From positions 2,046-66,045 of the forward strand of contig JBCCTI010000031.1 of the NCBI GenBank assembly GCA_039198955.1: 64,000 nt of DNA, read 5' to 3'. The notes under the pieces are model-generated. The model was not told the DNA's origin. It did not search any database and saw only the letters and a list, made by a program, of their open reading frames with translations. The first letter of the stretch is position 1. Each line of letters opens with the position of its first letter. Below are positions 1,603-52,627 of the stretch, piece after piece. This stretch comes from Bacteroidota bacterium (lineage in GTDB: Bacteria; Bacteroidota; Bacteroidia; Cytophagales; Cyclobacteriaceae). The position numbers were made by a program, and so were the translations under genes.

Positions 1603-2394
1603 ATGAACCCTGCAATGTCATCACTGCCTCCTACATTGGCAGCATTTCGCCCCGTCATTGAAAAGTCGCTTCGTCCCTACATCCGAGTTCAAGCGCAAAT
1701 TGACGAAGATGTTACCATTATTCAAAGTAAATTCGGTGGATTACCGTATTTACCCTCTGATGTGGATTATCCGACTGATGAAGATGGAAACCCGTTATTC
1801 TTACTAGCACAGATTAATTGTGAAGATTTGCCGGAGTTAGAAGATTTCCCTCAGCGAGGAATTCTACAATTTTATATTGCCGATGATGATATGTACGGCC
1901 TGGATTTGGACGAACCCACCGATCAGCAAAATTTTCGGATACTGTATTTTGAGGAAGTAGATGAAGGGAATCGACAGCGTGATTTTAGTTTTCTCCCAGT
2001 ATTTGAAGAAATGCCCTTTGAAGAAAAATATACGCTCACGTTTACTTCAGAGACTGGAGCCGTTTCTCCTGAAGATATTCATTTTGATGAAGCCTTTGGT
2101 GAGGCACCTCATACCTTTTTCGATCAGTTTGGAGCTGATGCCGACCCGGTTCGCCGTGAGTACCGTCGGTTTGCTAAGGGGGCTGGACATAAAATGGGTG
2201 GTTACGCCCACTTCACGCAGGAAGATCCTCGCTTCGAGATCGATGATTTTGCTGAAGCCGTTCTACTACTCCAAATCGATTCTAAAAATGATATTGAGTG
2301 GGGCGATGCCGGAATAGCTAATTTCTTTATCCTTCCCGAAGACCTCCGCAACCGTGATTTTAGCAATGTGATGTACAACTGGGATAGCCTTTGA
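1603..2394 (+). CDS. YwqG/DUF1963 family protein
   Basis: SKFGGLPYLP, LFLLAQINC, GILQFYI, HKMGGY, LLLQIDS and WGDAGIANFFI...DFSNVMYNWD motifs. Confidence 0.85.
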   Translation: MNPAMSSLPPTLAAFRPVIEKSLRPYIRVQAQIDEDVTIIQSKFGGLPYLPSDVDYPTDEDGNPLFLLAQINCEDLPELEDFPQRGILQFYIADDDMYGLDLDEPTDQQNFRILYFEEVDEGNRQRDFSFLPVFEEMPFEEKYTLTFTSETGAVSPEDIHFDEAFGEAPHTFFDQFGADADPVRREYRRFAKGAGHKMGGYAHFTQEDPRFEIDDFAEAVLLLQIDSKNDIEWGDAGIANFFILPEDLRNRDFSNVMYNWDSL

Positions 2395-2565
2395 CAGTTG
2401 ACAATTGATAGTGGATAATTAAAAATATGAGATGTGAAAAGCGGCAGCCACGCTGTCGGAAGACCGAAGTCCGGAGACAGAGAACAATGAGCAATGAACA
2501 ATTTGTAATTTTTCAATTTGTAATTCCCTTAATCAACAACTAGCAATCGAGCATTCAAGCAACCG
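2391..2565. repeat. Mosaic of degenerate heptamer tandem repeats
   Basis: TTGACAG TTGACAA TTGATAG TGGATAA (2391-2418); AGACCGA AGTCCGG AGACAGA GAACAAT GAGCAAT GAACAAT (2461-2502); TTGTAAT-type and TCAACAA/CTAGCAA-type units; small hairpin CGGCAGC-CAC-GCTGTCG at 2442-2458. Confidence 0.8.
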
Positions 2566-2570
2566 AAAAT

Positions 2571-3101
2571 ATGATCTTTACTGAAACCAAACTGGCGGGA
2601 GCCTTTATTATCGATCTGAAAAAAATTGAAGACGATCGGGGTTTCTTCTCGCGGGCATTCTGTGCCAACGAATTTCGTGAGCATGGGCTAAACCCAACGG
2701 TAACTCAGTGTAATTTGTCACTATCTAAGGTCAAGTACACACTACGAGGATTTCACTATCAGGTAGAGGGTGCCGAGGAAGCAAAGACGGTTCGTTGCAT
2801 CCGAGGTAGTGTTCTAGACGTAATTATTGACCTGCGGAAAGATTCACCTACCTACTGTCAACATGTTGCGGTAGAATTGTCGGCCGAGAACCATCGGGCG
2901 TTATACGTACCCGAGCATTTTGCTCATTCGTTTATCACGCTAGAAGATAACTGTGAAGTTTTTTATCAAGTATCTGAATTTTATTCTCCCGGAAAAGAAC
3001 GAGGCATTCGCTGGAATGACCCGACATTTGAGGTAGACTGGCCCACCCAGCAACCCATCGTTTCTGAAAAGGATGCCAATCATCCCAACTTCCATCCTTA
3101 A
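2571..3101 (+). CDS. rfbC: dTDP-4-dehydrorhamnose 3,5-epimerase family
   Basis: DDRGFFSR, LRGFHYQ, KTVRCIRGSVLDVIIDLRKDSPT, YVPEHFAH, GIRWNDP and SEKD. Confidence 0.9.
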   Translation: MIFTETKLAGAFIIDLKKIEDDRGFFSRAFCANEFREHGLNPTVTQCNLSLSKVKYTLRGFHYQVEGAEEAKTVRCIRGSVLDVIIDLRKDSPTYCQHVAVELSAENHRALYVPEHFAHSFITLEDNCEVFYQVSEFYSPGKERGIRWNDPTFEVDWPTQQPIVSEKDANHPNFHP

Positions 3102-3123
3102 CCAATCTTGATTTGCTGGCTGC

Positions 3124-4107
3124 TCAAAGTGCTTGGGCGGGCTGCGTATACGGTTCCTGCTGTTGGAAGTAGTATTTGACCAATCCGTAGCCGTAGCCCA
3201 AAAACACAGTAAACGCTGTGAAAATACTTAAAAAACCTACTGACAAGGACTTATAGCGTACTGCACCTTCCAGGAAAACCGCAATAGCATATAGGCCTAA
3301 AGAGGCGGCCAGCCATCTTCCCAAGGCTGGTTCAATGATTGATAAAATCAGGGTAAGGAACAGATAGGCGTAGAACAAAAGGGGAAGAAAATACATAGGC
3401 TTTAAGCTACCGGGAAACAACCGAGCCAGATTAATACGGGACTTGCCAAACCACACCATCTGCTGCCAAAAACCTTTCAAAGTTTTCTTCCGCTTGTGAT
3501 AGATATATGCCTCTGGAATTAGCCCGACCTTAAACCCTTGCTGCTGAATGCGGATGCTCAGATCAATATCTTCCCCACAGTTGGGTAGCCGATAGCCCCC
3601 CGTAGCTTCGTATACCTGACGGGAGAAGCCCATATTGAAACTACGAGGGTGGTACTCTCCTACTTGTTTCTTTCTTCCTCGGGTTCCAGCCGTGGTTAGA
3701 AAAGAGGTCAGGGCAAAATCTACGGATTTTTGCATGGGGGTAAATGAAGAATGCCCCCGGTCTGGTCCACCAAACGCGTCTAGTTTCTGCTGCTGAATAC
3801 CTTGGTGGACATGTTGCAAATAGTCGGGCGGAACGATAATATCAGAATCTAGAATAATCAGATAATCACCCCGAGCCTGCTCCATACCAAAGTTACGGGA
3901 AAAGCCTTGTCCGTGATTGCCCGTATACGCGTAGTGAATATTTAACTGATTTTGGAAATCAGTCACTACCCGGTCAGATTTTACGGTCGAGCCACTTTCT
4001 ACCACAATTACTTCAAAATTCGTATACGTTTGCTGTACCAGCCCCTCCAGTACCTCCCGAATATCATCGGGGCGGTTGTACACTGGAATAACCAAAGAAT
4101 AAAGCAT
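3124..4107 (-). CDS. Glycosyltransferase family 2 with C-terminal membrane segment
   Basis: SLVIPVYNRP, RNFG, ILDSD (DxD), GEDIDLS and HKR motifs. Confidence 0.85.
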   Translation of the reverse strand: MLYSLVIPVYNRPDDIREVLEGLVQQTYTNFEVIVVESGSTVKSDRVVTDFQNQLNIHYAYTGNHGQGFSRNFGMEQARGDYLIILDSDIIVPPDYLQHVHQGIQQQKLDAFGGPDRGHSSFTPMQKSVDFALTSFLTTAGTRGRKKQVGEYHPRSFNMGFSRQVYEATGGYRLPNCGEDIDLSIRIQQQGFKVGLIPEAYIYHKRKKTLKGFWQQMVWFGKSRINLARLFPGSLKPMYFLPLLFYAYLFLTLILSIIEPALGRWLAASLGLYAIAVFLEGAVRYKSLSVGFLSIFTAFTVFLGYGYGLVKYYFQQQEPYTQPAQAL

Positions 4108-4109
4108 AC

Positions 4110-7555: not shown

Positions 7556-7712
7556 TAGTCCACAGCTTATCAGTCCATGGTCGACAGATTATAGTTCACA
7601 AATTTCTAGTTGAAATAAATAGACAGCAATAACCAGTAATTCTAGCTGATGAGAAGTGAATGCAACGCTAAACGCTACTATCTATGGACAATGGACTGTC
7701 GTCTGTGGACTA
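7556..7712. repeat. Inverted heptamer-repeat arms around a ~110-bp core
   Basis: TAGTCCACAG (7556-7565) is the reverse complement of CTGTGGACTA (7703-7712); CAGTCCAT (7571-7578) is the reverse complement of ATGGACTG (7691-7698). Confidence 0.75.
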
Positions 7713-11242: not shown

Positions 11243-11246
11243 AAGT

Positions 11247-11316
11247 ATCAGGGTTTAGGGAATAGGTATTGGGCGTTAGATTCCAAAACCAAATCCCTGA
11301 TTCCCAACACCCAATA
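11247..11316. repeat. G-rich and C-rich heptamer arms with two cross-complementary blocks
   Basis: 11304-11316 pairs with 11267-11279; 11289-11301 pairs with 11247-11258 (see findings). Confidence 0.75.
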
Positions 11317-14694: not shown

Positions 14695-14730
14695 ACCAGA
14701 GGTAATATATTGTCAAAATAATTTTATGAT

Positions 14731-14763
14731 AGCCTACTGTTTACGCAGTGGGCTTTTTTTTTT
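14731..14763 (+). terminator. Attenuator terminator hairpin
   Basis: AGCCTACTG-TTTACG-CAGTGGGCT stem (one G-U pair) followed by a 10-T run; possible antiterminator 14689-14699 pairing with 14737-14746. Confidence 0.85.
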
Positions 14764-14785
14764 ACAAAATCTAACCGACAAGAAT

Positions 14786-16225
14786 ATGAATACTGATCTT
14801 TCTTCCTCCATCTTTCGGCTGACTACCCGTTCCGAGCGATTGCTAGCCGATACAGTCACCCCCGTAAGCATTTACCTAAAAATCCGTGACCGTTACGAGA
14901 ACCCTATTTTACTAGAAAGCTCCGATTACCACAGTAGTGATAATAGTTTTTCGTATATCTGTTGCCAACCGATCGCCTCTTTTTCGGTAAGTCAGCGAAA
15001 AGTAACTCAGGTACTACCAGATGGCAACAAAGAAGAGACTGTAGTGGAAAATCCTCAAGAAATTATCGGAATGCTCACCGAATTTGCCAGCCGATTTCAG
15101 AGCGAAGAGCACGCTTACCGATTTACCACCAATGGTTTATTCGGTTACATGGGCTACGATGCCGTACAGTATTTTGAGGATATTGATCTATCTTCAGACG
15201 AAAAAAGCCAGTATAACATTCCTGAAATTCACTACGCGGTGTACCGTTACGTAATTGCCGTAGACCATTTTCGTAATGAACTGTACGCTTTTGAGCATCA
15301 GCACGAAGGAAATAATAGCGAAGAAAGTGGATTGGCAAACCTGCTGGCACTTATCAATAATAAAAATATTCCTAGCTATCACTTCAAGCGTAGCGAAGCC
15401 GAAAGTAGCAATTACACCGATGAGGAATTTTTAGATATTATTGGCAAGGGACGCGAGCACTGCTTCCGGGGCGACGTTTTTCAGATTGTACTATCGCGCC
15501 GCTTCCAGACTTCTTTCAAGGGTGATGAGTTTAATGTTTATCGAACTTTGCGTTCTATCAATCCTTCACCCTACTTATTTTACTTCGACTACGGTAACTA
15601 CAAGCTGTTCGGCTCATCGCCCGAAGCCCAGATTGTAATTAAGGATGATACCGCCAGCATCTACCCCATTGCCGGAACCTTCCGCCGAACGGGCAACGAT
15701 GAAGCCGATGCCGAACTCGCCCGCAAGCTGATGGACGATCCTAAAGAAAATTCAGAACACGTGATGCTAGTCGATTTAGCCCGCAATGACTTAAGCCGTA
15801 ATGGTGATGATGTAACGGTAGAAACCTTCAAGGAGATTCAGTATTTCTCCCACGTTATCCACCTAGTTTCTAAAGTAACTGGAACCCTGTCGAGCGATAC
15901 TTCGCCCATTCGGGTGGTCGCTGATACTTTTCCCGCCGGAACGCTTTCGGGTGCCCCCAAACATATGGCCATGCAGCTAATCCATCGGTACGAAAGCACT
16001 CAACGAGGCTATTACGGCGGTGCTTTGGGTTTTCTGGGTTTCAACGGAGACTTCAACCATGCGATTATGATTCGCTCATTCTTGAGCCAAGATAACACAT
16101 TGTACTACCAAGCGGGAGCCGGCATTGTCGCTAAATCGGAAGTTGAGAAGGAGTTGCAAGAGGTAAATAATAAGTTAGCGGCTCTTCGAAAGGCATTGGA
16201 ACTAGCTGAATCAATTGCAAATTGA
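14786..16225 (+). CDS. trpE: Anthranilate synthase component I
   Basis: LLADTVTPV, LLESS, GDVFQIVLSRRF, NPSPY, PIAGT, EHVMLVDLARNDL, FPAGTLSGAPK and QAGAGIV. Confidence 0.95.
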   Translation: MNTDLSSSIFRLTTRSERLLADTVTPVSIYLKIRDRYENPILLESSDYHSSDNSFSYICCQPIASFSVSQRKVTQVLPDGNKEETVVENPQEIIGMLTEFASRFQSEEHAYRFTTNGLFGYMGYDAVQYFEDIDLSSDEKSQYNIPEIHYAVYRYVIAVDHFRNELYAFEHQHEGNNSEESGLANLLALINNKNIPSYHFKRSEAESSNYTDEEFLDIIGKGREHCFRGDVFQIVLSRRFQTSFKGDEFNVYRTLRSINPSPYLFYFDYGNYKLFGSSPEAQIVIKDDTASIYPIAGTFRRTGNDEADAELARKLMDDPKENSEHVMLVDLARNDLSRNGDDVTVETFKEIQYFSHVIHLVSKVTGTLSSDTSPIRVVADTFPAGTLSGAPKHMAMQLIHRYESTQRGYYGGALGFLGFNGDFNHAIMIRSFLSQDNTLYYQAGAGIVAKSEVEKELQEVNNKLAALRKALELAESIAN

Positions 16226-16673
16226 AAGATTACAAATTGCAGATTGAAAAATTGTAAGATTACAAATCGTTAAGGATGGCGAAGAAAATTGAGCAGTTTG
16301 AAGACTTACCGATCTGGCAGCAAGCGGTTGATATTGCTTCTGAAGTATATCTGCTAAGTAATCAAGACGAATGGAAGTATTCTTTTGGTATTAAAGACCA
16401 GATACAACGATCGGCATTGTCTATCTCCAGTAATATCGCTGAAGGTTTTGAGTATGACAATACCAAAGATTTTATCCGTTTTCTCCGGTACGCTAAAGGC
16501 TCAGCCGGAGAGCTACGCAGTCAACTATATATTCTTTATCGCTCAGAGATAGTCCAGCGGGCTGAATACGAAGCCCTACACACTAAACTTCTGGAAATGT
16601 CCCGTCAACTATCCGCTTTTATGAAATACCTGAAGTCACGCACCCAATAATTTGCAATTTTCCAATCTACAAT
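16214..16673 (+). mobile_element. Inverted-repeat-flanked four-helix-bundle cassette between trpE and trpG (mobility inferred)
   Basis: Arm 16236-16257 matches the reverse complement of 16652-16673 at 19 of 22 nt; both arms are built of ATTxxAA-type heptamers. Confidence 0.55.
16276..16650 (+). CDS. Four-helix-bundle protein (23S rRNA IVS-protein family)
   Basis: FEDLPIWQQA, KDQIQRSALSISSNIAEGF and FLRYAKGSAGELRSQL. Confidence 0.9.
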   Translation: MAKKIEQFEDLPIWQQAVDIASEVYLLSNQDEWKYSFGIKDQIQRSALSISSNIAEGFEYDNTKDFIRFLRYAKGSAGELRSQLYILYRSEIVQRAEYEALHTKLLEMSRQLSAFMKYLKSRTQ

Positions 16674-16678
16674 CAACC

Positions 16679-17251
16679 ATGAAAATACTAGTACTAGATA
16701 ATTACGATTCATTTACCTACAACTTGGTCCATATTCTGCGAGAGTTGGGAGTGGGTGAACAGATGGATATTATTCGCAACGATAAGATTTCAGTAGAGGA
16801 AGTAGATCGCTACGATAAAATTTTGCTTTCCCCCGGACCGGGTATTCCGTCTGAGGCAGGCATTATGATGGATGTAATCAAAACCTATGCTCCGAGTAAA
16901 AGTATTTTAGGTATTTGTCTCGGACATCAGGGAATTGCCGAAGCCTTTGAGGCCGATTTGTACAACATGCCATTGGTACTGCACGGTTACGGCGACAAGG
17001 TTTTTATTGAAGATGACAAAGAGTACCTGTTTGACGGAATTCCTACATCATTTAATGTGTGCCGTTACCATAGCTGGGCGGTGGTAGCTGATTCTATGAA
17101 TGAAAATCTGGTGGTAACTGCCCGGGACATTAAGGGAGAGATTATGGGACTTCGTCATCGGCAGTATGATGTAAAAGGGCTACAGTTTCATCCTGAATCC
17201 ATCTTAACCGAACATGGGAAGGAGATGATTAAGAATTGGTTAGGACGCTGA
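16679..17251 (+). CDS. trpG: Anthranilate synthase component II (glutamine amidotransferase)
   Basis: MKILVLDNYDSFTYN, SPGPG, GICLGHQ, RYHS and QFHPES. Confidence 0.95.
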   Translation: MKILVLDNYDSFTYNLVHILRELGVGEQMDIIRNDKISVEEVDRYDKILLSPGPGIPSEAGIMMDVIKTYAPSKSILGICLGHQGIAEAFEADLYNMPLVLHGYGDKVFIEDDKEYLFDGIPTSFNVCRYHSWAVVADSMNENLVVTARDIKGEIMGLRHRQYDVKGLQFHPESILTEHGKEMIKNWLGR

Positions 17252-17280
17252 TTGCTGAAAGCTGAAATTAATGAGGTGCG

Positions 17281-17661
17281 ATGAATAACAAGAAGCATTT
17301 ACAACTAAATGATATTGATGCCTATAAAGCTGCTTTTAGCTTGAGTAATAAGGTATGGAGCATCATAACACGGTGGGATCATTTTAGTAAAAATACTGTA
17401 GGCATTCAGTTTGTCCGCTCAGTAGATTCAGTATCCGCGAATTTAGCGGAGGGATTTGGACGCTACGGGAAGAAAGATAAAATTAAATTCTGTCGCTATG
17501 CTTTAGCCTCAGCGTACGAATCCCTAGATTGGAATGAAAAGTCTAAAGCAAGATGCTTAATTACAACAGATATATACGAAGTGAATTTCCTAGAGCTGCA
17601 AAAATTACCTAAAGCCATAAACGCTTTAATAAAATTCACCAACAGCCATTTGACCATTTAA
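17281..17661 (+). CDS. Four-helix-bundle protein (23S rRNA IVS-protein family), second copy
   Basis: QFVRSVDSVSANLAEGFGRY...KIKFCRYALASAYESLDW; flanked by short tandem repeats. Confidence 0.88.
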   Translation: MNNKKHLQLNDIDAYKAAFSLSNKVWSIITRWDHFSKNTVGIQFVRSVDSVSANLAEGFGRYGKKDKIKFCRYALASAYESLDWNEKSKARCLITTDIYEVNFLELQKLPKAINALIKFTNSHLTI

Positions 17662-17682
17662 CAATTCTAGCCATTTCGAAAA

Positions 17683-18684
17683 ATGAAATCCATCCTTAAC
17701 AATCTCATTGAATATAAATCTTTAGACAAACAAGCAGCTAAAGAGATCTTAGTCCGTTTAGCCCAAGGCGAATTCAACCAAAGCCAGATGGCGGCCTTTC
17801 TCACTGTATTTCTAATGCGGAGCATTACCGTAGAAGAACTGGAAGGCTTCCAAGAAGCAATGCTGGAGCTTTGTGTTCCTTTAAACATCGCTGAGTACGA
17901 TGCCATTGACCTCTGTGGTACAGGGGGCGACGGAAAAAACACCTTCAATATTTCTACTACGGCTTCTTTTGTAGTAGCGGGAGCGGGACAAAACGTAGCC
18001 AAACACGGTAACAACGGAGTATCATCGGTTTGTGGGTCGTCCAATCTACTAGCTCATTTTGGCTATAAGTTTACCAATGATACTAATATCCTGAAGCAAA
18101 GCTTAGATCAAGCCGGCATCTGTTTTTTGCACGCCCCGCTATTTCATCCGGCTATGAAGAATGTGGCTCCGGTACGCCGTGAGCTAGGGATGAAAACCTT
18201 TTTCAATATGCTCGGCCCGATGGTAAACCCTTCATTTCCGAAGAAACAACTGGTGGGGGTTTTTAATCTGGAGCTCGCTCGTTTGTATGCCTACCTTTTT
18301 CAGAAAAGTGATAAGCAATTTGTCATTCTTCACTCACTGGATGGCTACGACGAAATCTCACTCACGGGTCCGTTCCGCATGATTACTAACGAAGGCGAAT
18401 ACCTGCTGCGCCCTGAGGACCTAGGATTTCAAACCCATCGCTCAGAAGACCTATACGGTGGGGCAACGGTGGAGGATTCAGCTCAGATATTTCTGAATAT
18501 CTTAAATGGAAAGGGGACTCTGGCTCAGCGAGAAGCAGTTATAGCCAACGCGGGTATGGCCATTCATTGCGGTAACCCTTCGCTTACTTTGGAAGAAAGT
18601 ATCCAGCGCGCCCAGACTTCATTAGAATCAGGTAAAGCTCAGCAAACCTTCCAACGGTTAGTGGGTAATCATGCTTCAGCCTAA
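17683..18684 (+). CDS. trpD: Anthranilate phosphoribosyltransferase
   Basis: DLCGTGGDG, FNIST, KHGN, FLHAPLFHPAMK, TFFNMLGP and DGYDE. Confidence 0.95.
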   Translation: MKSILNNLIEYKSLDKQAAKEILVRLAQGEFNQSQMAAFLTVFLMRSITVEELEGFQEAMLELCVPLNIAEYDAIDLCGTGGDGKNTFNISTTASFVVAGAGQNVAKHGNNGVSSVCGSSNLLAHFGYKFTNDTNILKQSLDQAGICFLHAPLFHPAMKNVAPVRRELGMKTFFNMLGPMVNPSFPKKQLVGVFNLELARLYAYLFQKSDKQFVILHSLDGYDEISLTGPFRMITNEGEYLLRPEDLGFQTHRSEDLYGGATVEDSAQIFLNILNGKGTLAQREAVIANAGMAIHCGNPSLTLEESIQRAQTSLESGKAQQTFQRLVGNHASA

Positions 18685-22742: not shown

Positions 22743-22839
22743 TGGTTCGATTGTTGGATTGCCCTATTACTCGATGGCTAAATTGCTGATTGCTGAAGTT
22801 GTTCTTAGTTCTCACCTTTCTCCCTTCTCCCGTTTTCCG
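22743..22839. repeat. Intergenic spacer made entirely of 8-mer and 7-mer repeat arms
   Basis: AATGGTTC GATTGTTG GATTGCCC ... GATGGCTA AATTGCTG ATTGCTG, then CTCACCT TTCTCCC TTCTCCC GTTTTCC. Confidence 0.8.
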
Positions 22840-24344: not shown

Positions 24345-24370
24345 CAATGGGCAATGGGCAATGGGCAATG
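24345..24370. repeat. Perfect heptamer tandem (CAATGGG)x3.7
   Basis: Directly read; further TCAA(C/T)-type degenerate heptamers extend to about 24460. Confidence 0.9.
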
Positions 24371-30512: not shown

Positions 30513-30536
30513 TAGCTAACCATTTATTTTTCTATA

Positions 30537-33137: not shown

Positions 33138-33168
33138 TGGTAAGACGCTTGTTTCGTTATCAATTATA

Positions 33169-35835
33169 TTACTCTGATCGTAGATTATCGGCAGGATTAA
33201 CCAGTGCCGCTCGAATGGATTGATAGCTGACGGTAAGCACCGCGATTGTAATAGCTATTAAACCGGCTAAAGCAAATACATCCCACTCAATGGGTATGCG
33301 GTATTCATAATCTTCTAACCAGGTCTGCATGAAATACCAGGCAATAGGAATGGCGATTACCAGCGATATCAAAATGAGTATTAGGTAGTTTTGGGTGAGT
33401 AGGCGGAAGATTTGTCCGAAAGACGCTCCTAAGACTAGCCGGATGCTAACTTCTTTTCGACGTTGTTCCGCCATGAAGGCCGACAGAGCGAATAGGCCAA
33501 GGCAAGCAATGACAATCGCCAGGATAGCAAAACTGGTAAAAATTCGCCCCATGCGTTTTACATCGGCGTACATCATGGCAAAACTCTCATCCAGAAAGGT
33601 GTAACGAATACCTTGGTTAGGAGAAAAACGATCCCACACCGCCGTTACGGCTTCTATTGTTTCTGGCATATCAGCGGTATTAACCTTCACTGATACCACC
33701 GAAGGGCTGTTGCCTAATACCAGGCAGAGTGGGCGAATTTTTTCTTTTAGCGATTGATAATTGAAATCCTGCACCACTCCGATAATCTGCCAGACATCGC
33801 CGCGGTTGGTAATTCGCTCGCCGATGGGATTATCCAACCCCAATTCCTGCGCCATTCGCTGGTTAATGATTACTGCCTGAGAGTCACTAGCCATCTCAAT
33901 ATTGAAGTTTCGCCCTTCCACAATGTTCATACCTATTGTCTGCAGGTAGTCTTCATCCGTACGCCATATCTGGGTTCCTACTCCTACGTCCTCATTTACT
34001 TTTCCCTCTTTCCAAAAAGAATTCTGATTTCTCTTCGTACCAGCAATGGGTAAGTAGTCGCTAACGGATACTTGTTTTACATCTGATAATTGCTGCAACT
34101 CGCTTTTAAAAGCAGGTAGCTGGTTCTCTAAAGTATTAGCACCCTGAAGCAGTATTACCTGTTCTTTATCAAAGCCCACATCTTTAGTGAGGATAAACTG
34201 CATCTGTTGGTAGACGATAGCAGTACTAATAATTAATATGATGGAGGTAGCAAACTGAAAAATAACCAGAGCGCTACGGAGCTTAGAGCTTTTACTACCT
34301 CGAGTCACTTCTCCCTTTAGTACCTGGGCAGGTTTAAAGCGGGAAAGATACACTGAGGGATAAAGCCCGGCTAGAATGCCAATAACTACGGCTAGTGCTA
34401 CTAACACCGGTAAAAACCACCACGCCTGCCAAGGGAAAGTTAAGGTTTTGGCTGATAAATCGTTGAAGTATGGCAGCAGTAAGAATGCTAACAATATCGC
34501 TAAGACAAATGACAAAAAGCTAATTAATAGCGACTCGGTTAGAAACTGATGAACTAGTTGACGGCGAGCCGAACCAATCGCTTTTCGTAGTCCTACTTCC
34601 TTGGCGCGATTGGCCGACTTAGCGGTAAAAAGATTGACAAAGTTAATCCCGGCAATGAGCAAAATAAAGCCCGCAACTGCACCGAATAGCCAGACAAAGC
34701 GTATATCACCGTGATTAAGGCGATCTCTAATACCGTTTGAGTATAAATGGATATCACTGATAGGTTGTAACTCTACGCTTAGGTTTGAGGCAAACGCTTC
34801 AGCATTCACCATACCTCCTTCTTGGAAGCTGGGCAAGAAATAGTTTTGAATGATCCCCTTCGTCAGCTTGGCTTCCAATGCATCAGCCTCGGTTCCAGGC
34901 TGAACCCTAATATAAGTATGGTAGTTGCTCGATCCCCAAGAGGTTTGTTCACCCTCCCAAAATTCCCGACCAGTCATTGTAATTAGAAAATCATATTGAA
35001 AATGAGAGGTGGCCGGAAAATCTTCAAAGACTCCGCCTACTTTGTAGAGCTGACTTTCATCGTTACCAAGTACTAGCGTCTGGCCTAAAGGATTTTCATC
35101 AGGAAATAATTTATTGGCTTGGCTCTGAGAAATGGCGATAGTATTAGGCTCCGCTAAGGCTCTTGGTAGTTCGCCCTGAACAAAGTTGGGCCGGAGTATC
35201 TCTAGCAACTCCTGATCGGCGTAGACAAAACCTTCTTCGTAGATATTCTCAGCCTGATCCGCCCGACGCACTTCTCTACCACCAGCACCAAATAATTCGC
35301 TGGCGTTTATCCTGCCCGAGGCTTCAATTTCTGGAAAGTCGTCTTTTAGTACACTAGCCATTGGGGGTGGAAAATGTATTCCTTTTCGAATCTCCCCCTG
35401 ATCGTTGAATACACCAACTACTCGGTAAATACAATCACCATCCGAATAGTGCTGATCGTAGCTAAGTTCATGCTGAATAAATAAGGTAATTAACAAACAG
35501 GCCGTAATGCCCAGGGCAAGCCCGCCAATCTTAATCAAAGAGTAAGTTTTCTGCTTCCTCAGGTTTCTCCAGCCAATTTTAACATAGCTTTGGTACATAG
35601 CACGATGGGTTAAGTTGTAAAATGTTGTTAGATTACGGATAGCAAATGGTCGTAGATAGTGAAATACCTGATACCAATAATTGCGCTTAGCTTGACCTAA
35701 CGAGTGTTCTTCCAGCGTTTGGTAGAACTTCTCTTCTAAATCCCCTTCTACTTCTTCGGCTAGTTCGCCCCGAAGGAACCAGCGGAGAAAGCGTTGAGCG
35801 AGTTTGGGTGGTACATTGTCAGGATCAGGATTCAC
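33169..35835 (-). CDS. MacB/FtsX-family ABC permease with permease-prefix domain
   Basis: NFVNLFTAKSANRAKEVGLRK and NPADNLRSE; GTG start, internal ATG at 35598. Confidence 0.9.
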   Translation of the reverse strand: MNPDPDNVPPKLAQRFLRWFLRGELAEEVEGDLEEKFYQTLEEHSLGQAKRNYWYQVFHYLRPFAIRNLTTFYNLTHRAMYQSYVKIGWRNLRKQKTYSLIKIGGLALGITACLLITLFIQHELSYDQHYSDGDCIYRVVGVFNDQGEIRKGIHFPPPMASVLKDDFPEIEASGRINASELFGAGGREVRRADQAENIYEEGFVYADQELLEILRPNFVQGELPRALAEPNTIAISQSQANKLFPDENPLGQTLVLGNDESQLYKVGGVFEDFPATSHFQYDFLITMTGREFWEGEQTSWGSSNYHTYIRVQPGTEADALEAKLTKGIIQNYFLPSFQEGGMVNAEAFASNLSVELQPISDIHLYSNGIRDRLNHGDIRFVWLFGAVAGFILLIAGINFVNLFTAKSANRAKEVGLRKAIGSARRQLVHQFLTESLLISFLSFVLAILLAFLLLPYFNDLSAKTLTFPWQAWWFLPVLVALAVVIGILAGLYPSVYLSRFKPAQVLKGEVTRGSKSSKLRSALVIFQFATSIILIISTAIVYQQMQFILTKDVGFDKEQVILLQGANTLENQLPAFKSELQQLSDVKQVSVSDYLPIAGTKRNQNSFWKEGKVNEDVGVGTQIWRTDEDYLQTIGMNIVEGRNFNIEMASDSQAVIINQRMAQELGLDNPIGERITNRGDVWQIIGVVQDFNYQSLKEKIRPLCLVLGNSPSVVSVKVNTADMPETIEAVTAVWDRFSPNQGIRYTFLDESFAMMYADVKRMGRIFTSFAILAIVIACLGLFALSAFMAEQRRKEVSIRLVLGASFGQIFRLLTQNYLILILISLVIAIPIAWYFMQTWLEDYEYRIPIEWDVFALAGLIAITIAVLTVSYQSIRAALVNPADNLRSE

Positions 35836-36330
35836 TGGATGATAAGATTATCAGGATTTTACTTTCTGAATGATTAACTTTTTGCTTTATGTTCTTTACT
35901 GAATAGACGCTTAACCTCGAGGCTCCGCGCCCCAAAATTGATGAGTAATCCTTTATCTATCTTATAAGCTTGTAGATAATTAAGTCCTTGTGCTAGATGA
36001 GCGTCTTCCAGCTGGATGACTGCCTTTAGCTCCACGATTACTTGGTTTTCTACTATAAAGTCAGCCCTTCTAGTACCTACCTGTATATCTTCGTAATAAA
36101 TAGGCATTTCCAACTCCCGCGCAAATCCTAACCCTTGCTTCTCCATTTCAATCGCTAAACACCGTTGGTAAATCACTTCTTGAAACCCGTTGCCCAAAGT
36201 ACTATGAACTTTCGTAGCACACCCGATAATCTTATATGTCAAAGGATCGTTAATATCTTCTTTCATCTTCCAAATTTTTTTAATCGCTAGGTTATAATCC
36301 TGCTAATCCCACCATCCCGTGAATCCTGAT
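35824..36330 (-). mobile_element. GxxExxY cassette bounded by 38-bp imperfect inverted repeats (mobility inferred)
   Basis: 35824-35861 vs the reverse complement of 36293-36330: 32 of 38 identical. Confidence 0.6.
35874..36266 (-). CDS. GxxExxY protein (PD-(D/E)XK nuclease fold)
   Basis: IIGCA..VH..LGNGFQEVIY, RADFIVE...IVELKA, AQ.LNYL and GLLINFG. Confidence 0.92.
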   Translation of the reverse strand: MKEDINDPLTYKIIGCATKVHSTLGNGFQEVIYQRCLAIEMEKQGLGFARELEMPIYYEDIQVGTRRADFIVENQVIVELKAVIQLEDAHLAQGLNYLQAYKIDKGLLINFGARSLEVKRLFSKEHKAKS

Positions 36331-36345
36331 ACTGACATTATAATC

Positions 36346-36675
36346 TCACAATCCAGACCATCCCGGTCGAAACTGTCGCCATAGAGATACTTTCAGATCG
36401 CGAGAGATTTCCAGGGCGCGCTGACCGTAGGCTGTGATAGTGTAAATGCGCTTACGGCGCCCGCCCCGTTCGGCAGTAGCTTGTCCCATTTCGGAAGTGA
36501 GAAAGCCTTTATCCTCCAGTCGACTTAGCGTAGAGTGTACCGCGCCAATAGAAACCGACCGGCCAGTTTGAGATTCAAATTCTTCGGCTAGCTTGAAAGC
36601 GTAAGCTTCCTTACCCAAAATGCCTACCAGCAGCAGAACGGTTTCTTCAAAGTCACCTAAACGAGATTCTTTCAT
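36346..36675 (-). CDS. PadR family transcriptional regulator (short subfamily)
   Basis: LGDFEETVLL, SIGAVHSTLSRLEDKG and GGRRKRIYTITAYG. Confidence 0.9.
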   Translation of the reverse strand: MKESRLGDFEETVLLLVGILGKEAYAFKLAEEFESQTGRSVSIGAVHSTLSRLEDKGFLTSEMGQATAERGGRRKRIYTITAYGQRALEISRDLKVSLWRQFRPGWSGL

Positions 36676-39772: not shown

Positions 39773-39900
39773 TAATGATTGATGATGAATGAGTGATGAC
39801 TAATGATGAAAAGCGTATTATTAATCATCCGCGCCACGCGGTGGGCGCCCACCGCGTGGCGCGGCGGCCGCAATCATTATTCATTCATCATCATCGTAAT
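39773..39900. repeat. Heptamer arms enclosing a perfect 36-bp GC-rich palindrome (39829-39864)
   Basis: CCGCGCCACGCGGTGGGCGCCCACCGCGTGGCGCGG equals its own reverse complement; the flanks share GATGATGAATGA / TCATTCATCATC. Confidence 0.9.
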
Positions 39901-50024: not shown

Positions 50025-50031
50025 ATTTTAT

Positions 50032-50457: not shown

Positions 50458-50686
50458 GGAGCTTTTCTTTCAGCCTGCTCTTAAATTTGATAGAGCCTTC
50501 GGTTCGGCTACTACCTTCCTGCCCAAACAAGTCTTTCCCTAAGTCATAGGGACTATGAGCCGCTTCAGCTTTCTGCAAGTACGCAACTAGTGCTTCCTTC
50601 ACTACTTGTGATTTGGTTTTTTGCTGCTGTTGGCAAAATTCACGCAATTTCTCTTCGGTCTCATTAGATAAACGAACGGTCAACAT
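50438..50686 (-). CDS. Ribbon-helix-helix (CopG-like) antitoxin
   Basis: MLTVRL...EEKL......KTKSQVVKEAL..YL; overlaps the toxin start. Confidence 0.85.
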   Translation of the reverse strand: MLTVRLSNETEEKLREFCQQQQKTKSQVVKEALVAYLQKAEAAHSPYDLGKDLFGQEGSSRTEGSIKFKSRLKEKLHEKYSR

Positions 50687-50701
50687 ATCACAATTCTTGT
50701 T

Positions 50702-50719
50702 GTATTACAAGTGTAATAC
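50702..50719. promoter_or_regulatory. Perfect palindrome GTATTACA-AG-TGTAATAC, putative TA autoregulatory operator
   Basis: 15 nt upstream of the antitoxin start codon. Confidence 0.65.
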
Positions 50720-50838
50720 GTTTGAAGAAACTATTAGGTTCTACACACAGCAAATTAGATCAAAAAATCGTCCTATATGTTTACATCTTCTCTTTCAGTA
50801 GTACTAAGCAGTATACAGCTTAACCAAAATGCCTCATT

Positions 50839-51621
50839 ATGTACCCTTACTTGAAAAAAAGAAATCGTCTGCCTACCGTTACCGCTGCTCAGATTTTACT
50901 CAACCGGGCTTTACGCCGAGGCGAAACTATTGCCGTAGATGGCGATTTCGGAAGAAAAACCCGCGAGGCAGTGATTAATTTTCAACAAAATCACCATCTC
51001 AACGACGATGGAATTATCGGGAAAAATACCTGGGCAGCCCTGGTTCGTGGTCAGGGATTACAAGTTATTGATACGGTTGATGTAGCCGAGGTAGCTGATA
51101 TCGGCTACGAAGACCAAGACATTCGTGATGCCGGAGGCAACCCAATTGTTAACCACGGCATGAGTGGTGGATTACGGGTAGTACTCGATCAGATTCTGGC
51201 TCGGGGGCAACTTGGTCGCGTGGTACTACTGCGTTTTCACGGACATGGCTCACCAGGAAATATGGGATTATCAACAGGTACTCGATCAGACGTACCTTCT
51301 TCCGAATTTACTGCTGATTACTTTAGAATAGAACGCTTCCGAAACTTTCTAGCTCGCCTTGCTCCTCTTTTCTGCCCATTTGGCAGTGTAGAATTCCACG
51401 GTTGTCGAGTAGGCGGAGGGCAAGCTGGGAAGAAGTTTGTAGAAGGGTTTGCCAAAGTACTTAAAGTTCCGGCAACGGCGGGCAAGCAAACGCAATACGG
51501 TGGTGGTCGCTCTACTTTTCGCTTCGAGGGAGCTATCCGAACGGCTTTTCCCGGAGGAAAGACATTGAAAGCCTGGTCGGCCTCTCAAGCTGAAGCTGGA
51601 CAGATGTCGGTTTATCGCTAA
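50839..51621 (+). CDS. Peptidoglycan-binding domain fused to a DUF4347-like (caspase/C80-fold) domain
   Basis: AQILLN...VDGDFG.KT..AV..FQ....L..DGIIG..TW.AL; C-terminal FHGHG.PG and FHGC.VG. Confidence 0.7.
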   Translation: MYPYLKKRNRLPTVTAAQILLNRALRRGETIAVDGDFGRKTREAVINFQQNHHLNDDGIIGKNTWAALVRGQGLQVIDTVDVAEVADIGYEDQDIRDAGGNPIVNHGMSGGLRVVLDQILARGQLGRVVLLRFHGHGSPGNMGLSTGTRSDVPSSEFTADYFRIERFRNFLARLAPLFCPFGSVEFHGCRVGGGQAGKKFVEGFAKVLKVPATAGKQTQYGGGRSTFRFEGAIRTAFPGGKTLKAWSASQAEAGQMSVYR

Positions 51622-51671
51622 ACCTAGCTGGAGATAGCTATCTCAGGTATTGTAAAAATTATGGACGTGCC

Positions 51672-52424
51672 CTAGTTCTTATCCTCTTTAGAAAAATCGG
51701 TATAACAGCGGTTGATGGCAAGAACTAGGTCGTACTGGCTAGATCGTTCAATAAAATCTTCTTCGAAGCGACAGAAGATCATAAAATTATCTAGCAATTC
51801 TTCAGTCAGCCCCGTGATTTTACCTACCATTTCGCGATTATACTTGCGGGAAAGCCGCTGACGGCGGTCGTAATCCTGCTGGGCTTCCCGAGCCATGCGT
51901 TCATACTTCGCCCGACGGTTAAACCGACTGGCAATAAACGAAACCGGGTTTAACGGGCTGACCTTAGGCTCCCGGCGAGGTCCATCGTAGGAACCCGGAA
52001 CGACAACCTTAGGCGATTCTTCTGGTAGGTCATCCAGTGCCAACACCGCCCGCTTGAAAGATTCTACATCTTTGAAAGCAAACACCGTAACGTTTTCTAG
52101 CTCGTAAGTCTGTTCGCTCATTCTAACTTGCAAGTCATAATTGCTCACCTGAGCGGTATCACCGAAGAACAAAAATGCCGATTGGTAGCCTACCGAGGAA
52201 ATACGAATGGTATCGCTCCGCTGAAAGGTCAAATAAAAAAATCCGTCTTCATCGCTAATCACCCCAGTTTCAGTCGTCAGGTTGGTAACCGTAGCAAAAG
52301 ATAGTGGCTCATCCTGGTCATTAACAATGTTTCCCGAAACCTGAATACTTCCTTCAGGAGTACTTTGGGCTAATGCGCCAAGGGCAAGCAACCAAAAACT
52401 GAGGATGAAGAGAAAAGATTGCAT
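51672..52424 (-). CDS. Carboxypeptidase-regulatory-like domain protein
   Basis: Signal peptide, then VSG.IV....EPL.FATV.N...TGVISD..G.F, D.IRISSVGY and L..V.V. Confidence 0.8.
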   Translation of the reverse strand: MQSFLFILSFWLLALGALAQSTPEGSIQVSGNIVNDQDEPLSFATVTNLTTETGVISDEDGFFYLTFQRSDTIRISSVGYQSAFLFFGDTAQVSNYDLQVRMSEQTYELENVTVFAFKDVESFKRAVLALDDLPEESPKVVVPGSYDGPRREPKVSPLNPVSFIASRFNRRAKYERMAREAQQDYDRRQRLSRKYNREMVGKITGLTEELLDNFMIFCRFEEDFIERSSQYDLVLAINRCYTDFSKEDKN

Positions 52425-52489
52425 AACTAAATATCTAAATTACTGAAAAGCTAAACAATACACCAGTGATTAACATTTTTTAACTTCAA

Positions 52490-52627
52490 AGATTGAAGGG
52501 GTCAATGATAGTGACCATGCATGGCTAAATTGCTGATTGTTATCTACTCTTTCACTTTTTTCCACCTTCCCTTCTCAGTTTTAAGCTATCAATTATTGCC
52601 TGTCAATTATTCTACTTCCACTTGATA
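52490..52627. repeat. Mosaic of heptamer/octamer repeat arms
   Basis: Contains ATGGCTAAATTGCTGATTG (52521-52539), identical to 22774-22792, and TTGACAG/TTGATAG units (minus strand) like those at 2391. Confidence 0.75.

Follow-up and report, generated by a model that had tools for sequence, protein, structure and literature searches.

Small genes framed by inverted arrays of short tandem repeats occupy gene junctions in a Cytophagales genome

Small genes from two little-understood families, carried between arms of short tandem repeats and lodged in the gaps between other genes, represent a type of insert that is real and for the most part undescribed. Ten gene junctions with such repeats had been listed in a 64,000-nt stretch of a Cytophagales (Bacteroidota) genome, referred to here as the window, and arrays are present at all of them. 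TRF reports arrays (score at least 30) at 2391, 2482, 2500, 16214, 22782, 24345, 39773 and 52423, and those at 7556, 11247, 17247 and 35824/36292, which are too degenerate for TRF detection, were seen by eye together with folding or arm alignment. The original prediction had treated the ten junctions as one system, a view that stands only in part: three carry a cargo gene and three more (7556, 39773 and 11247) are gene-less complementary hairpins, whereas those at 2391, 22743, 24345 and 52490 hold only unpaired or chimeric arrays that lack excess structure. The gene-bearing junctions did prove to hold inserted cassettes whose arms are complementary and whose layout resembles that of the ORF-bearing intervening sequences (IVS) of 23S rRNA. 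Overall, the earlier interpretation is partly supported. The evidence leans, by a modest balance of probability, towards these junctions being compact promoterless DNA cassettes whose arms would be arrays of sites for the cassette's own protein.

Cassettes at the trp junctions

Two cassettes, HB1 and HB2, fill the trpE-trpG and trpG-trpD junctions, respectively:

14726-16225: trpE gene
16214..16269, + strand: HB1 5' arm, degenerate ATTGNAA/ATTACAA units
16276..16650, + strand: HB1 cargo gene, 124-aa four-helix-bundle (4HB) protein, TIGR02436/PF05635 (23S-IVS protein, Avd-like)
16651..16678, + strand: HB1 3' arm, made of TTNCAAT units that complement the 5' arm
16679-17251: trpG gene
17246..17273, + strand: HB2 5' arm, CGCTGAT TGCTGAA AGCTGAA, beginning inside the trpG TGA stop
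17281..17661, + strand: HB2 cargo gene, 126-aa four-helix-bundle protein (TIGR02436)
17643..17678, + strand: HB2 3' arm, CAGCCATT-like units, overlapping the ORF end and stopping 5 nt short of the trpD start
17683-18684: trpD gene

The HB1 5' arm (period 15, 3.6 copies by TRF) starts within trpE, whose end ...ATTGCAAATTGA, including the last codons and the TGA stop, forms its first two units. The 3' arm runs up to the trpG ATG (16679) and is conserved in two relatives, L003 and L005; the two arms align to each other with z 5.2-5.7. The HB1 protein matches TIGR02436 with an E-value of 4.3e-32 (110.6 bits, cut-off 24) and has a dN/dS of 0.07 against its closest relative. HB2, 31% identical to HB1 at the protein level, matches the same family (E 2.3e-20, 72.8 bits), and its orthologues in L002 and L007 (57-74% identity) occupy the same junction. 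Its 3' arm is only weakly complementary to the 5' arm in the window (z 1.8); in L007 the 5' arm is TTGCTGG x12, an example of how quickly array copy number changes, and the arm pair reaches z 6.9.

Among 80 sampled relatives, the trpE-trpG junction holds a 4HB gene in 27, distributed across Bacteroidota. In relatives, the trp junctions variously hold different allele types, pseudogenes or bare arms, and where they are empty the two genes lie 2-15 nt apart. At trpE-trpG, trpG is ~90% identical between alleles, yet the 4HB gene is either 77-92% or merely 58-64% identical, the first type being accompanied by ATTGNAA arm units and the second by GGTTNCAGG. Arms and gene have been replaced together here, and these allele types support the predicted interchangeability of cargo at a single site.

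The padR-permease cassette

The third cassette carries a different protein fold:

36346-36675, - strand: padR gene
36292..36364, - strand: GxxExxY cassette 5' arm, GGATTNNNN units, period ~9
35874..36266, - strand: GxxExxY cargo gene, 130-aa protein, TIGR04256, PD-(D/E)XK-type fold
35817..35873, - strand: GxxExxY cassette 3' arm, AATCCTGAT units
33169-35835, - strand: ADOP-type permease gene

The cargo protein matches TIGR04256 with an E-value of 6.4e-43 (145.8 bits, cut-off 35), and the arms align with z 13-15. The outer units of the 5' arm double as the final ~6 codons of padR plus its stop, and the outer end of the 3' arm, whose terminal motif ..TTCAGACA is common to relatives, provides the GTG start and first ~8 codons of the permease. 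The earlier observation that terminal codons of neighbouring genes can themselves be repeat units is therefore confirmed for trpE, padR and the permease.

Filled and empty alleles of the same junction, which had been anticipated, were found here as at the trp junctions, together with decayed and arms-only forms: the padR-permease junction of 19 relatives comprises five intact cassettes, one decayed by internal deletion, seven arms-only and six empty sites. In two of the empty-site genomes padR is 97-98% identical to the copy described here. In empty-site relatives padR is missing its final ~6 codons and the permease its initial ~8; padR of L174 and L175 aligns just to residue 104, and the permease alignment of empty alleles begins at residue 7-9. 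No Rpn gene, another proposed companion of the arrays, was seen beside the listed junctions in the part of the window ORFs that was scanned.

Gene-less arrays in the genome and the window

Against an order-3 Markov simulation of the whole genome, intergenic period-7 arrays are in ~12-fold excess (334 observed, 28 expected) and period-14 arrays number 115 rather than 5. With gene calls from our own simple caller, 21.4% of arrays lie at most 3 nt from a stop codon, compared with 6.6 +/- 0.8% when randomly placed in the same spacer, and 8.3% lie at most 3 nt from a start codon, compared with 4.8%, bearing out the expected enrichment at both. Across the genome, stop-abutting arrays are predominantly purine-rich (91 versus 7) and start-abutting arrays pyrimidine-rich (30 versus 12). 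In co-directional spacers the first third contains 97 purine-rich and 19 pyrimidine-rich arrays, and the last third 18 and 86, respectively. The density is ~6 intergenic arrays per 64 kb; the window is typical in this respect and is no special region of the genome.

The gene-less features of the window are as follows:

39773..39896, - strand: gene-less hairpin, AATGATG-type arm 39773-39809 (on +), complementary arm 39872-39896
7556..7712, unstranded: gene-less hairpin in a divergent spacer, arms 7556-7587 and 7682-7712, loop ~95 nt
11246..11316, - strand: gene-less short-loop hairpin, TTAGGG-like units
2391..2526, + strand: chimeric unpaired arrays, TTGACAG x4, then GAACAAT x3, then AATTTGT x3.6
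24345..24370, - strand: single perfect array, CAATGGG x3.7 on + (CCCATTG in gene sense), TRF 100% matches
22743..22839, - strand: spacer, purine-rich tract behind the upstream stop, CAGCAAT/CAATCC units ahead of the downstream start
52423..52627, unstranded: loose arrays in a divergent spacer, TRF score 31

The 39773 hairpin (MFE -62.1 versus -33.7 +/- 3.6 in shuffles, z -7.9), occupies the gap from a glycosyltransferase stop to a sodium:solute symporter start, and its arms flank a perfect GC palindrome (39830-39863) that has three related copies elsewhere in the genome. The 7556 hairpin, with GTCCACAG/GTCGACAG units in its first arm (7556-7587) and folding z-scores of -4.1 (sense) and -4.4 (antisense), belongs to the unit family of a 4HB cassette on contig C20 (C20:76975), and the 11246 hairpin to that of a 4HB cassette on contig C10. 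In the 11246 hairpin the pyrimidine arm stops 2-3 nt upstream of a HAD-hydrolase gene start, and a local stem is seen, the whole spacer scoring just z -1.1.

At 2391..2526 the TTGACAG array begins inside the TGA of a DUF1963 gene, the AATTTGT array is of the complement type of the HB1 unit family, and there is no excess structure (z 0.1). The 24345 array lies 18 nt upstream of an arginine-deiminase-family gene start with no partner arm (z 0.7) and is unique in the genome. The 22743 spacer retains the polarity, its two parts being non-complementary (z 0.8). A 19-nt word, GGCTAAATTGCTGATTG, is common to 22776-22794 and to the unstructured 52423..52627 arrays (z 0.5), for which a search of the genome for a dispersed family found none. 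Empty and chimeric arms had been read as scars of gain and loss; gene-less arrays do look like scars or satellites of the cassette unit families.

Arms follow their cargo

The link between arms and cargo is specific. Eight of the 12 intact 4HB/GxxExxY genes in the genome (67%) have complementary flanking arms at z of at least 5, as against 34 of all 5781 genes (0.6%), which upholds the suggested enrichment next to these families. Among relatives, arm z-scores of at least 4 were obtained for 47/80 HB1, 17/30 C40-type and 11/30 GxxExxY loci. The unit RRTTGNAA accompanies HB1 relatives over 45-92% identity and in several contexts, TTGAYAR accompanies the C40 type, and CAGGATT with terminal TGTCTGAA..TTCAGACA accompanies GxxExxY, so that the repeat unit tracks the protein branch across phyla and contexts. 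Arm similarity is 18.4-20.5 within a protein branch and 11.9-13.0 between branches; arm likeness is 41.9 at the same locus, 27.3 at different loci of one branch and 18.4 when shuffled. Gene-less arrays matching the unit family of each 4HB cassette number 12-52 (1.4 expected), and gene-less copies of GxxExxY units are few (2-6).

Inverted array pairs show purine..pyrimidine order in 36 cases and the reverse in three, and among HB1 relatives the figures are 35 and 3. The purine-first order described earlier in mRNA sense is not a property of the mRNA, because the polarity of an inverted repeat is identical on both strands. All three reading frames are closed by 19/36 of the 5' arms and by 3/36 of the 3' arms, the stop-codon richness of purine arms being partly an automatic result of composition. 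Cargo is co-oriented with co-directional neighbours at all 30 non-trp loci and at eight of nine such junctions in this genome.

These associations bear on the reading that the arrays are simply slippage repeats (STRR-type microsatellites) in AT-rich spacers, where small accessory genes land or survive, there or in pre-existing hairpin loops. Arrays are indeed abundant genome-wide, mostly with no gene, their copy number is unstable, the arrays at four of the ten listed junctions have neither partner nor cargo, and ordinary genes (dciA, a GNAT gene) can sit between two hairpins. Against this stand the figures just given for armed 4HB/GxxExxY genes and for genes at large, the tracking of protein branches by the units, the 36:3 polarity and the joint exchange of arms and gene at trpE-trpG. 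The association statistics already go most of the way to refuting such a coincidence, which we regard as very improbable.

Proposed pairing in the transcript

The arms had been proposed to pair in the mRNA and bring the flanking stop and start codons together. In a fuller version of this IVS-like scheme, the arms would pair in the operon transcript, RNase III cutting or looping-out would spare expression of the flanking genes, and the stem would be under selection. The architecture is that of ORF-bearing 23S rRNA intervening sequences (PMC4990558), the cargo lies in the operon sense, the arms reach exactly from stop to start, and some stems are strong, namely the GxxExxY duplex (-64.6 kcal/mol, top 0.07%) and the 39773 hairpin. 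However, selection on sense-strand RNA pairing should favour G:U oppositions, and across 92 significant arm alignments these (200) are not above A:C (217). The duplex energy of the HB1 and HB2 flanks is no better than genome background (~50th percentile), and folding is as good for the antisense strand as for the sense strand. Single arrays with no partner are frequent, some loci (L039, L167) place a complete hairpin at either flank instead of enclosing the gene in one hairpin, and cleavage of the stem would cut the polycistronic mRNA too. Maintenance of the arms by mRNA pairing is not supported by these counts and energies, and the RNA-level scheme as a whole is judged improbable.

Persistence, loss and a possible host role

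The 4HB cargo at trpE-trpG, with a dN/dS of 0.04-0.10, is under strong purifying selection. Contexts cluster on the protein tree (5 changes versus 21.8 in shuffles). Paralogues within the genome are just 22-53% identical, and as none are near-identical nothing points to recent transposition; nor was a target-site duplication seen.

Such persistence could be expected if the cassettes were ordinary operon members rather than inserts, the 4HB proteins being trans-acting regulators that bind stop/start heptamer arrays, as RNA or DNA, at many genes, and the arrays flanking their own gene being autoregulatory sites. The low dN/dS, the occurrence of the trpE-trpG 4HB gene in 27/80 relatives, spread over Bacteroidota, with clustered contexts, and the 12-52 gene-less arrays per unit family adjoining stops and starts would suit this arrangement, and a role in translational regulation has been proposed for TAACTGA heptamer arrays directly before start codons (PMC4679880). 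It accords poorly with presence that is patchy within one genus, with pseudogenes and internally deleted copies, and with arms-only and truly empty alleles despite 97-98% identical neighbours. A nuclease-fold protein shares the design, gene-less arrays adjoin genes with no functional relation to one another, and arrays decay and shift copy number fast, as in L007. Host regulation of this kind is considered unlikely.

Relationship to known systems

The closest known systems are 23S rRNA intervening sequences, REP/RAYT and Ssn/NTS. In the first, terminal inverted repeats form a stem that is cut by RNase III, with an S23p-family ORF in the loop; ORF-bearing examples are found in helix 45 of Coxiella burnetii and in Leptospira (PMC4990558). 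They share with the cassettes the cargo family (PF05635/TIGR02436 four-helix-bundle), a similar size (~430-560 nt), an ORF between terminal inverted repeats and a sporadic distribution among relatives. In contrast, the cassettes occupy protein-gene junctions rather than an rRNA helix, their arms are degenerate tandem arrays of a protein-branch-specific unit where the IVS has a near-perfect stem of 28 bp, GxxExxY provides a second cargo fold within the same design, and selection on RNA pairing was not found in the G:U and A:C counts of their arm alignments.

REP/REPIN-RAYT elements (PMC3733652) similarly comprise a single small gene flanked by inverted repeats of its presumed target, with many gene-less intergenic copies, mostly vertical inheritance and divergent paralogues. 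RAYT, however, is an IS200-like Y1 transposase, which the cassette cargo is not, and REPs are 20-40-bp palindromes with GTAG/CGTC tags, whereas the cassettes have 7-10-nt tandem units and abut stop and start codons. Two RAYT-like genes with such flanks occur in this genome, at C52:249-851 (sequence resemblance only, no Pfam match) and C68:16785-17327 (Y1_Tnp match at the family cut-off).

The Ssn GIY-YIG single-strand nucleases and their NTS/SRM repeats (PMC11893778) also consist of a small nuclease gene framed by dispersed repeats that its protein recognises, with hundreds of gene-less copies near other genes. They differ from the cassettes in repeat design and in fold, the latter being PD-(D/E)XK-type or four-helix bundle in the cassettes. 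This genome has a GIY-YIG gene with palindromic flanks at C79:6014-6304.

Intergenic heptamers are known as cyanobacterial STRR and as the TAACTGA arrays of Beggiatoaceae, Cyanobacteria and some Bacteroidetes (PMC4679880). These, too, lie in spacers as tandem heptamers, and many of them end a few nt short of a start codon or overlap the upstream stop; 'forward' TAACTGA units stop all three frames, and their phylogenetic distribution is patchy (PMC4679880). The arrays described there are direct, with no associated gene family named (PMC4679880), whereas those of the cassettes are inverted pairs of fixed polarity with branch-specific units tied to 4HB/GxxExxY genes. The cyanobacterial STRR framing of the original prediction is inapplicable to a Cytophagales genome.

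A probable promoterless DNA cassette

The favoured model, in which the arms are site arrays for the cassette's own protein, would have one small gene, encoding either a 4HB/Avd-like or a GxxExxY PD-(D/E)XK-fold protein, placed inside two inverted arrays of 7-10-nt units. The arms would be a property of the element and not of the target, with a unit specific to the protein branch wherever it is located, and the gene-less arrays that dominate the genome would be satellites or decayed versions drawn from the cassettes' unit families. With the purine-rich array on the 5' side, whichever strand is read, a ribosome arriving from the upstream gene would meet stop codons in three frames at once, while the stop-poor pyrimidine array would extend to, or provide, the next start codon, so that the cassette would fit exactly from stop to start within an operon, sometimes rewriting a few codons at the end or the beginning of a neighbouring gene. 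Its cargo, in the operon sense, would rely on host transcription.

The encoded protein may bind the repeat unit of its own cassette, with the 4HB protein acting as a nucleic-acid binder and GxxExxY as a site-specific nuclease, and such binding would serve to maintain the cassette or to spread it, like RAYT on REPs or Ssn on NTS. As two folds share one arm design, a third, host-encoded factor could read the arms. Arm complementarity would probably derive from inverted arrays of one unit evolving in concert, and not from selection for an mRNA stem. Cassettes would mostly pass down vertically, staying at one junction over very long periods while purifying selection acts, with sporadic loss, of the gene first and the arms later, and occasional replacement by another allele or a move to a new context. 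Such long vertical retention and strong purifying selection are as compatible with usefulness to the host as with a selfish function.

Tandem arrays in the window and the genome

The draft genome (7.03 Mb, 44.8% GC), in which the window covers positions 2046-66045 of contig C31, is assigned to a Cytophagales bacterium (Bacteroidota) on the basis of its closest relatives, which are uncultured Flammeovirgaceae/Roseivirgaceae and Splendidivirga. An identity of its repeats with the STRRs of heterocystous cyanobacteria was therefore rejected, though the repeat type, tandem heptamers in intergenic DNA, is similar. Genes were called with a simple dicodon model (5869 genes) and TRF was run on the whole genome. 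The gene names of the original prediction were borne out by family scans, including those of two four-helix-bundle (4HB) genes and one GxxExxY gene.

14726-16225, + strand, trpE (family scan)
16276-16650, + strand, 4HB gene HB1, 124 aa (TIGR02436, 110.6 bits, cut-off 24)
16679-17251, + strand, trpG (family scan)
17281-17661, + strand, second 4HB gene, HB2 (TIGR02436, 72.8 bits, cut-off 24)
17683-18684, + strand, trpD (family scan)
33169-35835, - strand, ADOP-type permease (family scan)
35874-36266, - strand, GxxExxY gene (TIGR04256, 145.8 bits, cut-off 35)
36346-36675, - strand, padR (family scan)

padR is followed by three paralogous ADOP/FtsX-type permease genes in tandem, each of ~870 aa (27906-35835, - strand). 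At least 10 padR paralogues occur in the genome, and each of them seems to head an ADOP/FtsX-type permease set.

Arrays had been predicted at ten gene junctions (2391, 7556, 11247, 16214, 17247, 22743, 24345, 35824, 39773 and 52490); eight were recovered by TRF, and the rest are too degenerate for TRF, yet visible in the sequence. Intergenic DNA of the genome contains 334 period-7 and 115 period-14 arrays, against 28 and 5, respectively, in an order-3 Markov simulation of intergenic DNA. The predicted enrichment at stop and start codons holds genome-wide: the distance to a stop codon is 3 nt or less for 21.4% of arrays and that to a start codon for 8.3%, compared with 6.6 ± 0.8% and 4.8% on random placement within the same spacer. 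The window is typical of the genome, not special.

Polarity of the arrays

The cassettes, in which inverted arrays of a short repeat unit (the arms) flank a cargo gene, have a fixed polarity. Stop-abutting arrays, read in the sense of that gene, are predominantly purine-rich (91:7) and start-abutting arrays pyrimidine-rich (30:12). In co-directional spacers, purine-rich arrays outnumber pyrimidine-rich ones by 97 to 19 in the first third, and the ratio turns to 18 to 86 in the last. Because these counts hold across the whole genome, the purine-arm-first rule proposed for the window is a genome-wide property; it is not, however, a polarity relative to the mRNA, both strands of an inverted repeat reading alike. 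A count made without gene calls gives 50 pairs of neighbouring intergenic arrays with significant inverse complementarity, 36 running from purine to pyrimidine and 3 the reverse. Most have loops of 1-130 nt, which makes hairpins without a gene the commonest form.

A purine-rich unit that contains T almost automatically includes TGA, TAA or TAG, so the tendency of the 5′ arm to start in a stop codon is partly built in. All three frames are closed in 19 of 36 5′ arms versus 3 of 36 3′ arms. The purine-first order may be favoured because incoming ribosomes would be stopped in every frame.

Cassettes and their cargo

TIGR02436 matches occur at 12 places in the genome, of which 9 are intact, and GxxExxY genes are present in 3 copies. 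Nearly all of these loci have a purine-rich array upstream and a complementary array downstream, the unit differing from locus to locus. For each gene, the 100 nt upstream were aligned with the reverse-complemented 100 nt downstream, and the arms were scored by the shuffle z-score of this alignment. Arm pairs at z>=5 flank 8 of the 12 intact 4HB/GxxExxY genes versus 34 of 5781 genes overall; within the window, the GxxExxY pair scores 13-15, that of HB1 5.2-5.7 and that of HB2 a weak 1.8. Cargo shares the orientation of co-directional neighbours at 30 of 30 non-trp loci; in this genome it does so at 8 of 9 such junctions. Paralogues in the genome are 22-53% identical and each has its own, different arms. 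No near-identical paralogues were found in the genome, and active transposition was rejected on this ground.

Three 4HB loci (C6:15338-15654, C6:32648-32959 and C131:2601-2783; C-numbers denote contigs) are pseudogenes or fragments with 1-6 internal stops or truncations and weak or lost arm complementarity, consistent with decay in place.

High arm scores were also given by genes of other kinds. C68:16785-17327 is RAYT-like, matching Y1_Tnp at the family cut-off (23.7 bits, cut-off 23), and C52:249-851 appears RAYT-like by inspection of its sequence only, without a Pfam match; both have REP-like palindromic flanks. A 96-aa GIY-YIG gene (C79:6014-6304) is framed by long palindromes, as in Ssn systems. 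Inverted arrays of a single unit family, the heptamer GTGTTNN, enclose three unrelated small genes (C25:4915-5346, DUF6985; C41:47544-48203, a 219-aa unknown; C22:8468-9064, DUF445), and no 4HB or GxxExxY gene with this unit was seen in this genome.

Filled and empty alleles at fixed junctions

As anticipated, both filled and empty alleles occur among relatives at the trp junctions and at padR-permease. Arms and gene behave as a single unit: at fixed gene junctions this unit is gained, replaced or lost, and when it erodes the gene goes first. The trp sample comprised trpG ± 1.5 kb from 30 relatives. At trpE-trpG, an HB1-type gene is present in several genomes of the same genus as one of two allele types, the first with 77-92% identity and ATTGNAA arms, the second with 58-64% identity and GGTTNCAGG arms, while the flanking trpE and trpG show the same closeness (about 90-95%) with either type. 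Decayed HB1-type copies are frameshifted in locus L007 and truncated in L005; in L014 the arms are present without a gene; and in L010 and L017-L020 merely 2-15 nt separate the trp genes. Large copy-number jumps in one arm only (L007 ~2065-2170, TTGCTGG x12 upstream of the HB2-type gene; L002 ~2520-2580, CAATCAG x8 downstream) imply that arms grow by slippage, each independently.

Ordinary-looking genes replace 4HB cassettes in the trpE-trpG gap of L002, L007, L008, L013 and L015 and in the trpG-trpD gap of L005-L013 and L015. These are methyltransferase-like (200-242 aa; resemblance by eye) or ABM/monooxygenase-like (~105-135 aa), and L007 has both a methyltransferase-like gene and the frameshifted 4HB gene.

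The padR-permease junction was compared at 19 orthologous loci, of which five carry an intact GxxExxY gene, one an internally deleted gene with arms (L179), seven arms only (L181-L188) and six neither. In the six empty loci stop and start overlap or nearly abut, and two of these (L174 and L175) have a padR 97-98% identical to that of this genome. Measured against the empty alleles, the cassette replaces ~25 nt, and no target-site duplication is visible in the comparison. Its arms provide the last ~6 codons and stop of padR and the start and first ~8 codons of the permease, which upholds the proposal that termini of neighbouring genes are themselves repeat units. The cassette extends across the whole spacer between stop and start, and neighbouring genes can have their termini rewritten by it.

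Breadth, constraint and the match of unit to protein

Eighty relatives of HB1 (45-92% identity) were fetched from Bacteroidota, Ignavibacteriota and Chlorobiota. Arms at z>=4 flank 47 of the 80, with a polarity of 35:3. RRTTGNAA-type units are common to HB1 relatives in every context, the HB1 unit itself being written as (GATTGNAA)n. The 4HB protein of contig C40 has the unit (TTGACAR)n, and TTGAYAR or ATTAAT units are common to its C40-type relatives. GxxExxY relatives have CAGGATT units in common, with a period of 9-10 and often outer TGTCTGAA..TTCAGACA ends. Arm similarity is 18.4-20.5 within branches and 11.9-13.0 between them; in the HB1 branch it is 41.9 within one locus, 27.3 between different loci and 18.4 for shuffled sequence. 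A branch-wide motif overlaid by locus-specific concerted evolution follows from these values. The match of unit to branch suggests that the cargo protein could recognise its own repeat unit. An alternative layout is seen in L039 (= L016) and L167, where a full purine..pyrimidine hairpin stands on each side of the cargo (a hairpin direct repeat) and the gene does not lie in one loop.

In 27 of the 80 sampled relatives, with trpG down to 52% identical, the trpE-trpG junction is the exact position of a 4HB gene of one branch (16276-16650 in the window). This gene (loci L031-L106) spans Cytophagales, Chitinophagales and Flavobacteriaceae, making it an unannotated trp-operon member of phylum-wide occurrence. 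Among cultured relatives, Splendidivirga corallicola has the trpE-trpG cassette. The context label changes 5 times on the protein tree versus 21.8 times in shuffles, a value as low being reached in none of 500; inheritance has therefore been mostly vertical, with few moves. In view of the long retention in the trp operon, regulation in the service of the host by the 4HB proteins is still a serious rival reading. The 4HB protein is strongly constrained (dN/dS 0.04-0.10 in ten close pairs, wherever dS is unsaturated) and the cargo reads in the operon sense.

Proposed pairing of the arms in mRNA

The original prediction held that the arms pair in the mRNA and bring the flanking stop and start codons together. 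Maintenance of arm complementarity through pairing in the sense transcript should bias the transition mismatches to G:U. No such bias exists in the significant arm alignments, with 200 G:U versus 217 A:C in total (by data set, 45 versus 47, 90 versus 119, 39 versus 33 and 26 versus 18). Sense and antisense strands fold equally well, and the duplex energy of the trp cassette flanks is near the median of the genome. Duplex energy of 90-nt flanks was dropped as a measure for every gene, being dominated by GC-rich coding flanks (mean -25 kcal/mol, equalled by mismatched pairs), and arm alignment with shuffle z-scores was used in its place. The mRNA-stem idea is left without its main sequence-level support; stronger stems may still be processed.

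Gene-less junctions

Elsewhere in the genome, each 4HB cassette unit family has 12-52 gene-less arrays versus 1.4 expected, and GxxExxY units have only 2-6. Gene-less arrays appear to be satellites or relics of cassette unit families. In the window, junction 7556 forms a hairpin (z -4.1) with units of GTCGACAG type that correspond to those in the arms of the C20 4HB cassette, and junction 11247 a short-loop hairpin with TTAGGG-like units resembling those of the C10 4HB cassette. Whole-spacer folds at 2391, 22743, 24345 and 52490 gave no excess structure beyond shuffled controls, the arrays there being unpaired or chimeric. The spacers at 22776-22794 and 52523-52541 have the word GGCTAAATTGCTGATTG in common, followed by a pyrimidine-rich tract (CTTTCTCCCTTCTC and CCACCTTCCCTTCTC, respectively). 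A dispersed element family comprising junctions 22743 and 52490 was rejected, as only this 19-nt word is common to them and no other copies of it were found in the genome.

Junction 39773 forms a strong AT-rich heptamer hairpin (z -7.9), the loop of which holds a perfect GC palindrome of 34 nt (39830-39863). This palindrome has only three partial relatives, of 20 nt (C20:24112, C2:28474 and C2:49907); the arms of the C10, C24 and C34 cassettes have GC-rich segments at their inner edge. A strict scan (perfect stem >=9, GC >=75%) found only 10 GC palindromes in the genome, none within TRF-defined inverted pairs. Such palindromes, previously proposed as recurrent cargo, were set aside as anecdotal, that at 39830 included.

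Relation to known systems

The closest described object is the 23S rRNA intervening sequence (IVS), the ORF-bearing form of which has its cargo between terminal inverted repeats that form a near-perfect stem (PMC4990558). The cassettes share its 4HB cargo family and terminal inverted repeats. Stem-forming repeats around the ORF are found for HB1 and the GxxExxY gene (z 5.2-15) and weakly for HB2. Unlike the IVS, which sits in a 23S rRNA helix, all three window cassettes separate protein-coding genes, namely trpE and trpG, trpG and trpD, and padR and permease. An IVS is also cut out of the transcript by RNase III; for the cassettes, the balance of G:U and A:C (200 versus 217) lends no support to selection on an RNA stem. 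REP/RAYT (PMC3733652) and Ssn/NTS (PMC11893778) systems also have a gene framed by its own repeats. As in REP/RAYT, the cassette gene stands between inverted copies of a repeat that is frequent without the gene (12-52 arrays for 4HB, just 2-6 for GxxExxY); the cargo is a 4HB or GxxExxY gene, not an IS200-like Y1 tyrosine transposase gene. The several near-identical copies with identical terminal repeats that mark IS elements and MITEs are not seen among the cassettes, nor is a target-site duplication visible between filled and empty padR-permease alleles. Integron gene cassettes have a promoterless ORF with a single attC at its 3′ end and are arrayed beside an integrase gene and attI. The promoterless cargo here, reading in the operon sense, would fit this design, but the present cassettes are solitary with arms on both sides. 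TAACTGA/STRR heptamer arrays adjoin starts and stops and close all three frames, with no gene family tied to them there (PMC4679880). A resemblance to Avd has been published for PF05635, the family of the 4HB proteins (PMC10053308). Searches of the literature outside subscription journals, covering both families in connection with cassettes, IVSs or heptamers, found no description of the cassette architecture.

Implications

To our knowledge, no function is established for either of two very large families, PF05635 ('23S rRNA intervening-sequence protein', related to Avd, an accessory protein of retroelements) and GxxExxY/PF13366. We tentatively propose, as a possibility we consider less probable than not, that PF05635 4HB proteins recognise short periodic repeats in a sequence-specific manner and that GxxExxY proteins do likewise, the proteins of each branch reading their own 7-10-nt unit. 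The gene with its inverted arrays would then represent, in autonomous form, a class of elements found across bacteria, with the 23S rRNA IVS as the special case carried in rRNA and the long-unexplained intergenic heptamer arrays (STRR, TAACTGA-type) as satellites lacking the gene. If it turns out that the short repeats these proteins read can be programmed, they might serve as tools, as with Ssn nucleases.

The cassettes also illustrate how an insert survives inside an operon, the purine-rich arm placing stops in all frames and the stop-poor arm reaching or supplying the next start. For annotation, terminal codons of trpE, padR and the permease can be repeat-derived and vary among close relatives. 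The shared genomic design with branch-specific units offers a testable function for PF05635 and GxxExxY/PF13366, namely that the protein reads its own repeat. If true, this would tie the intervening sequences of rRNA to the heptamer arrays found in intergenic DNA in several phyla.
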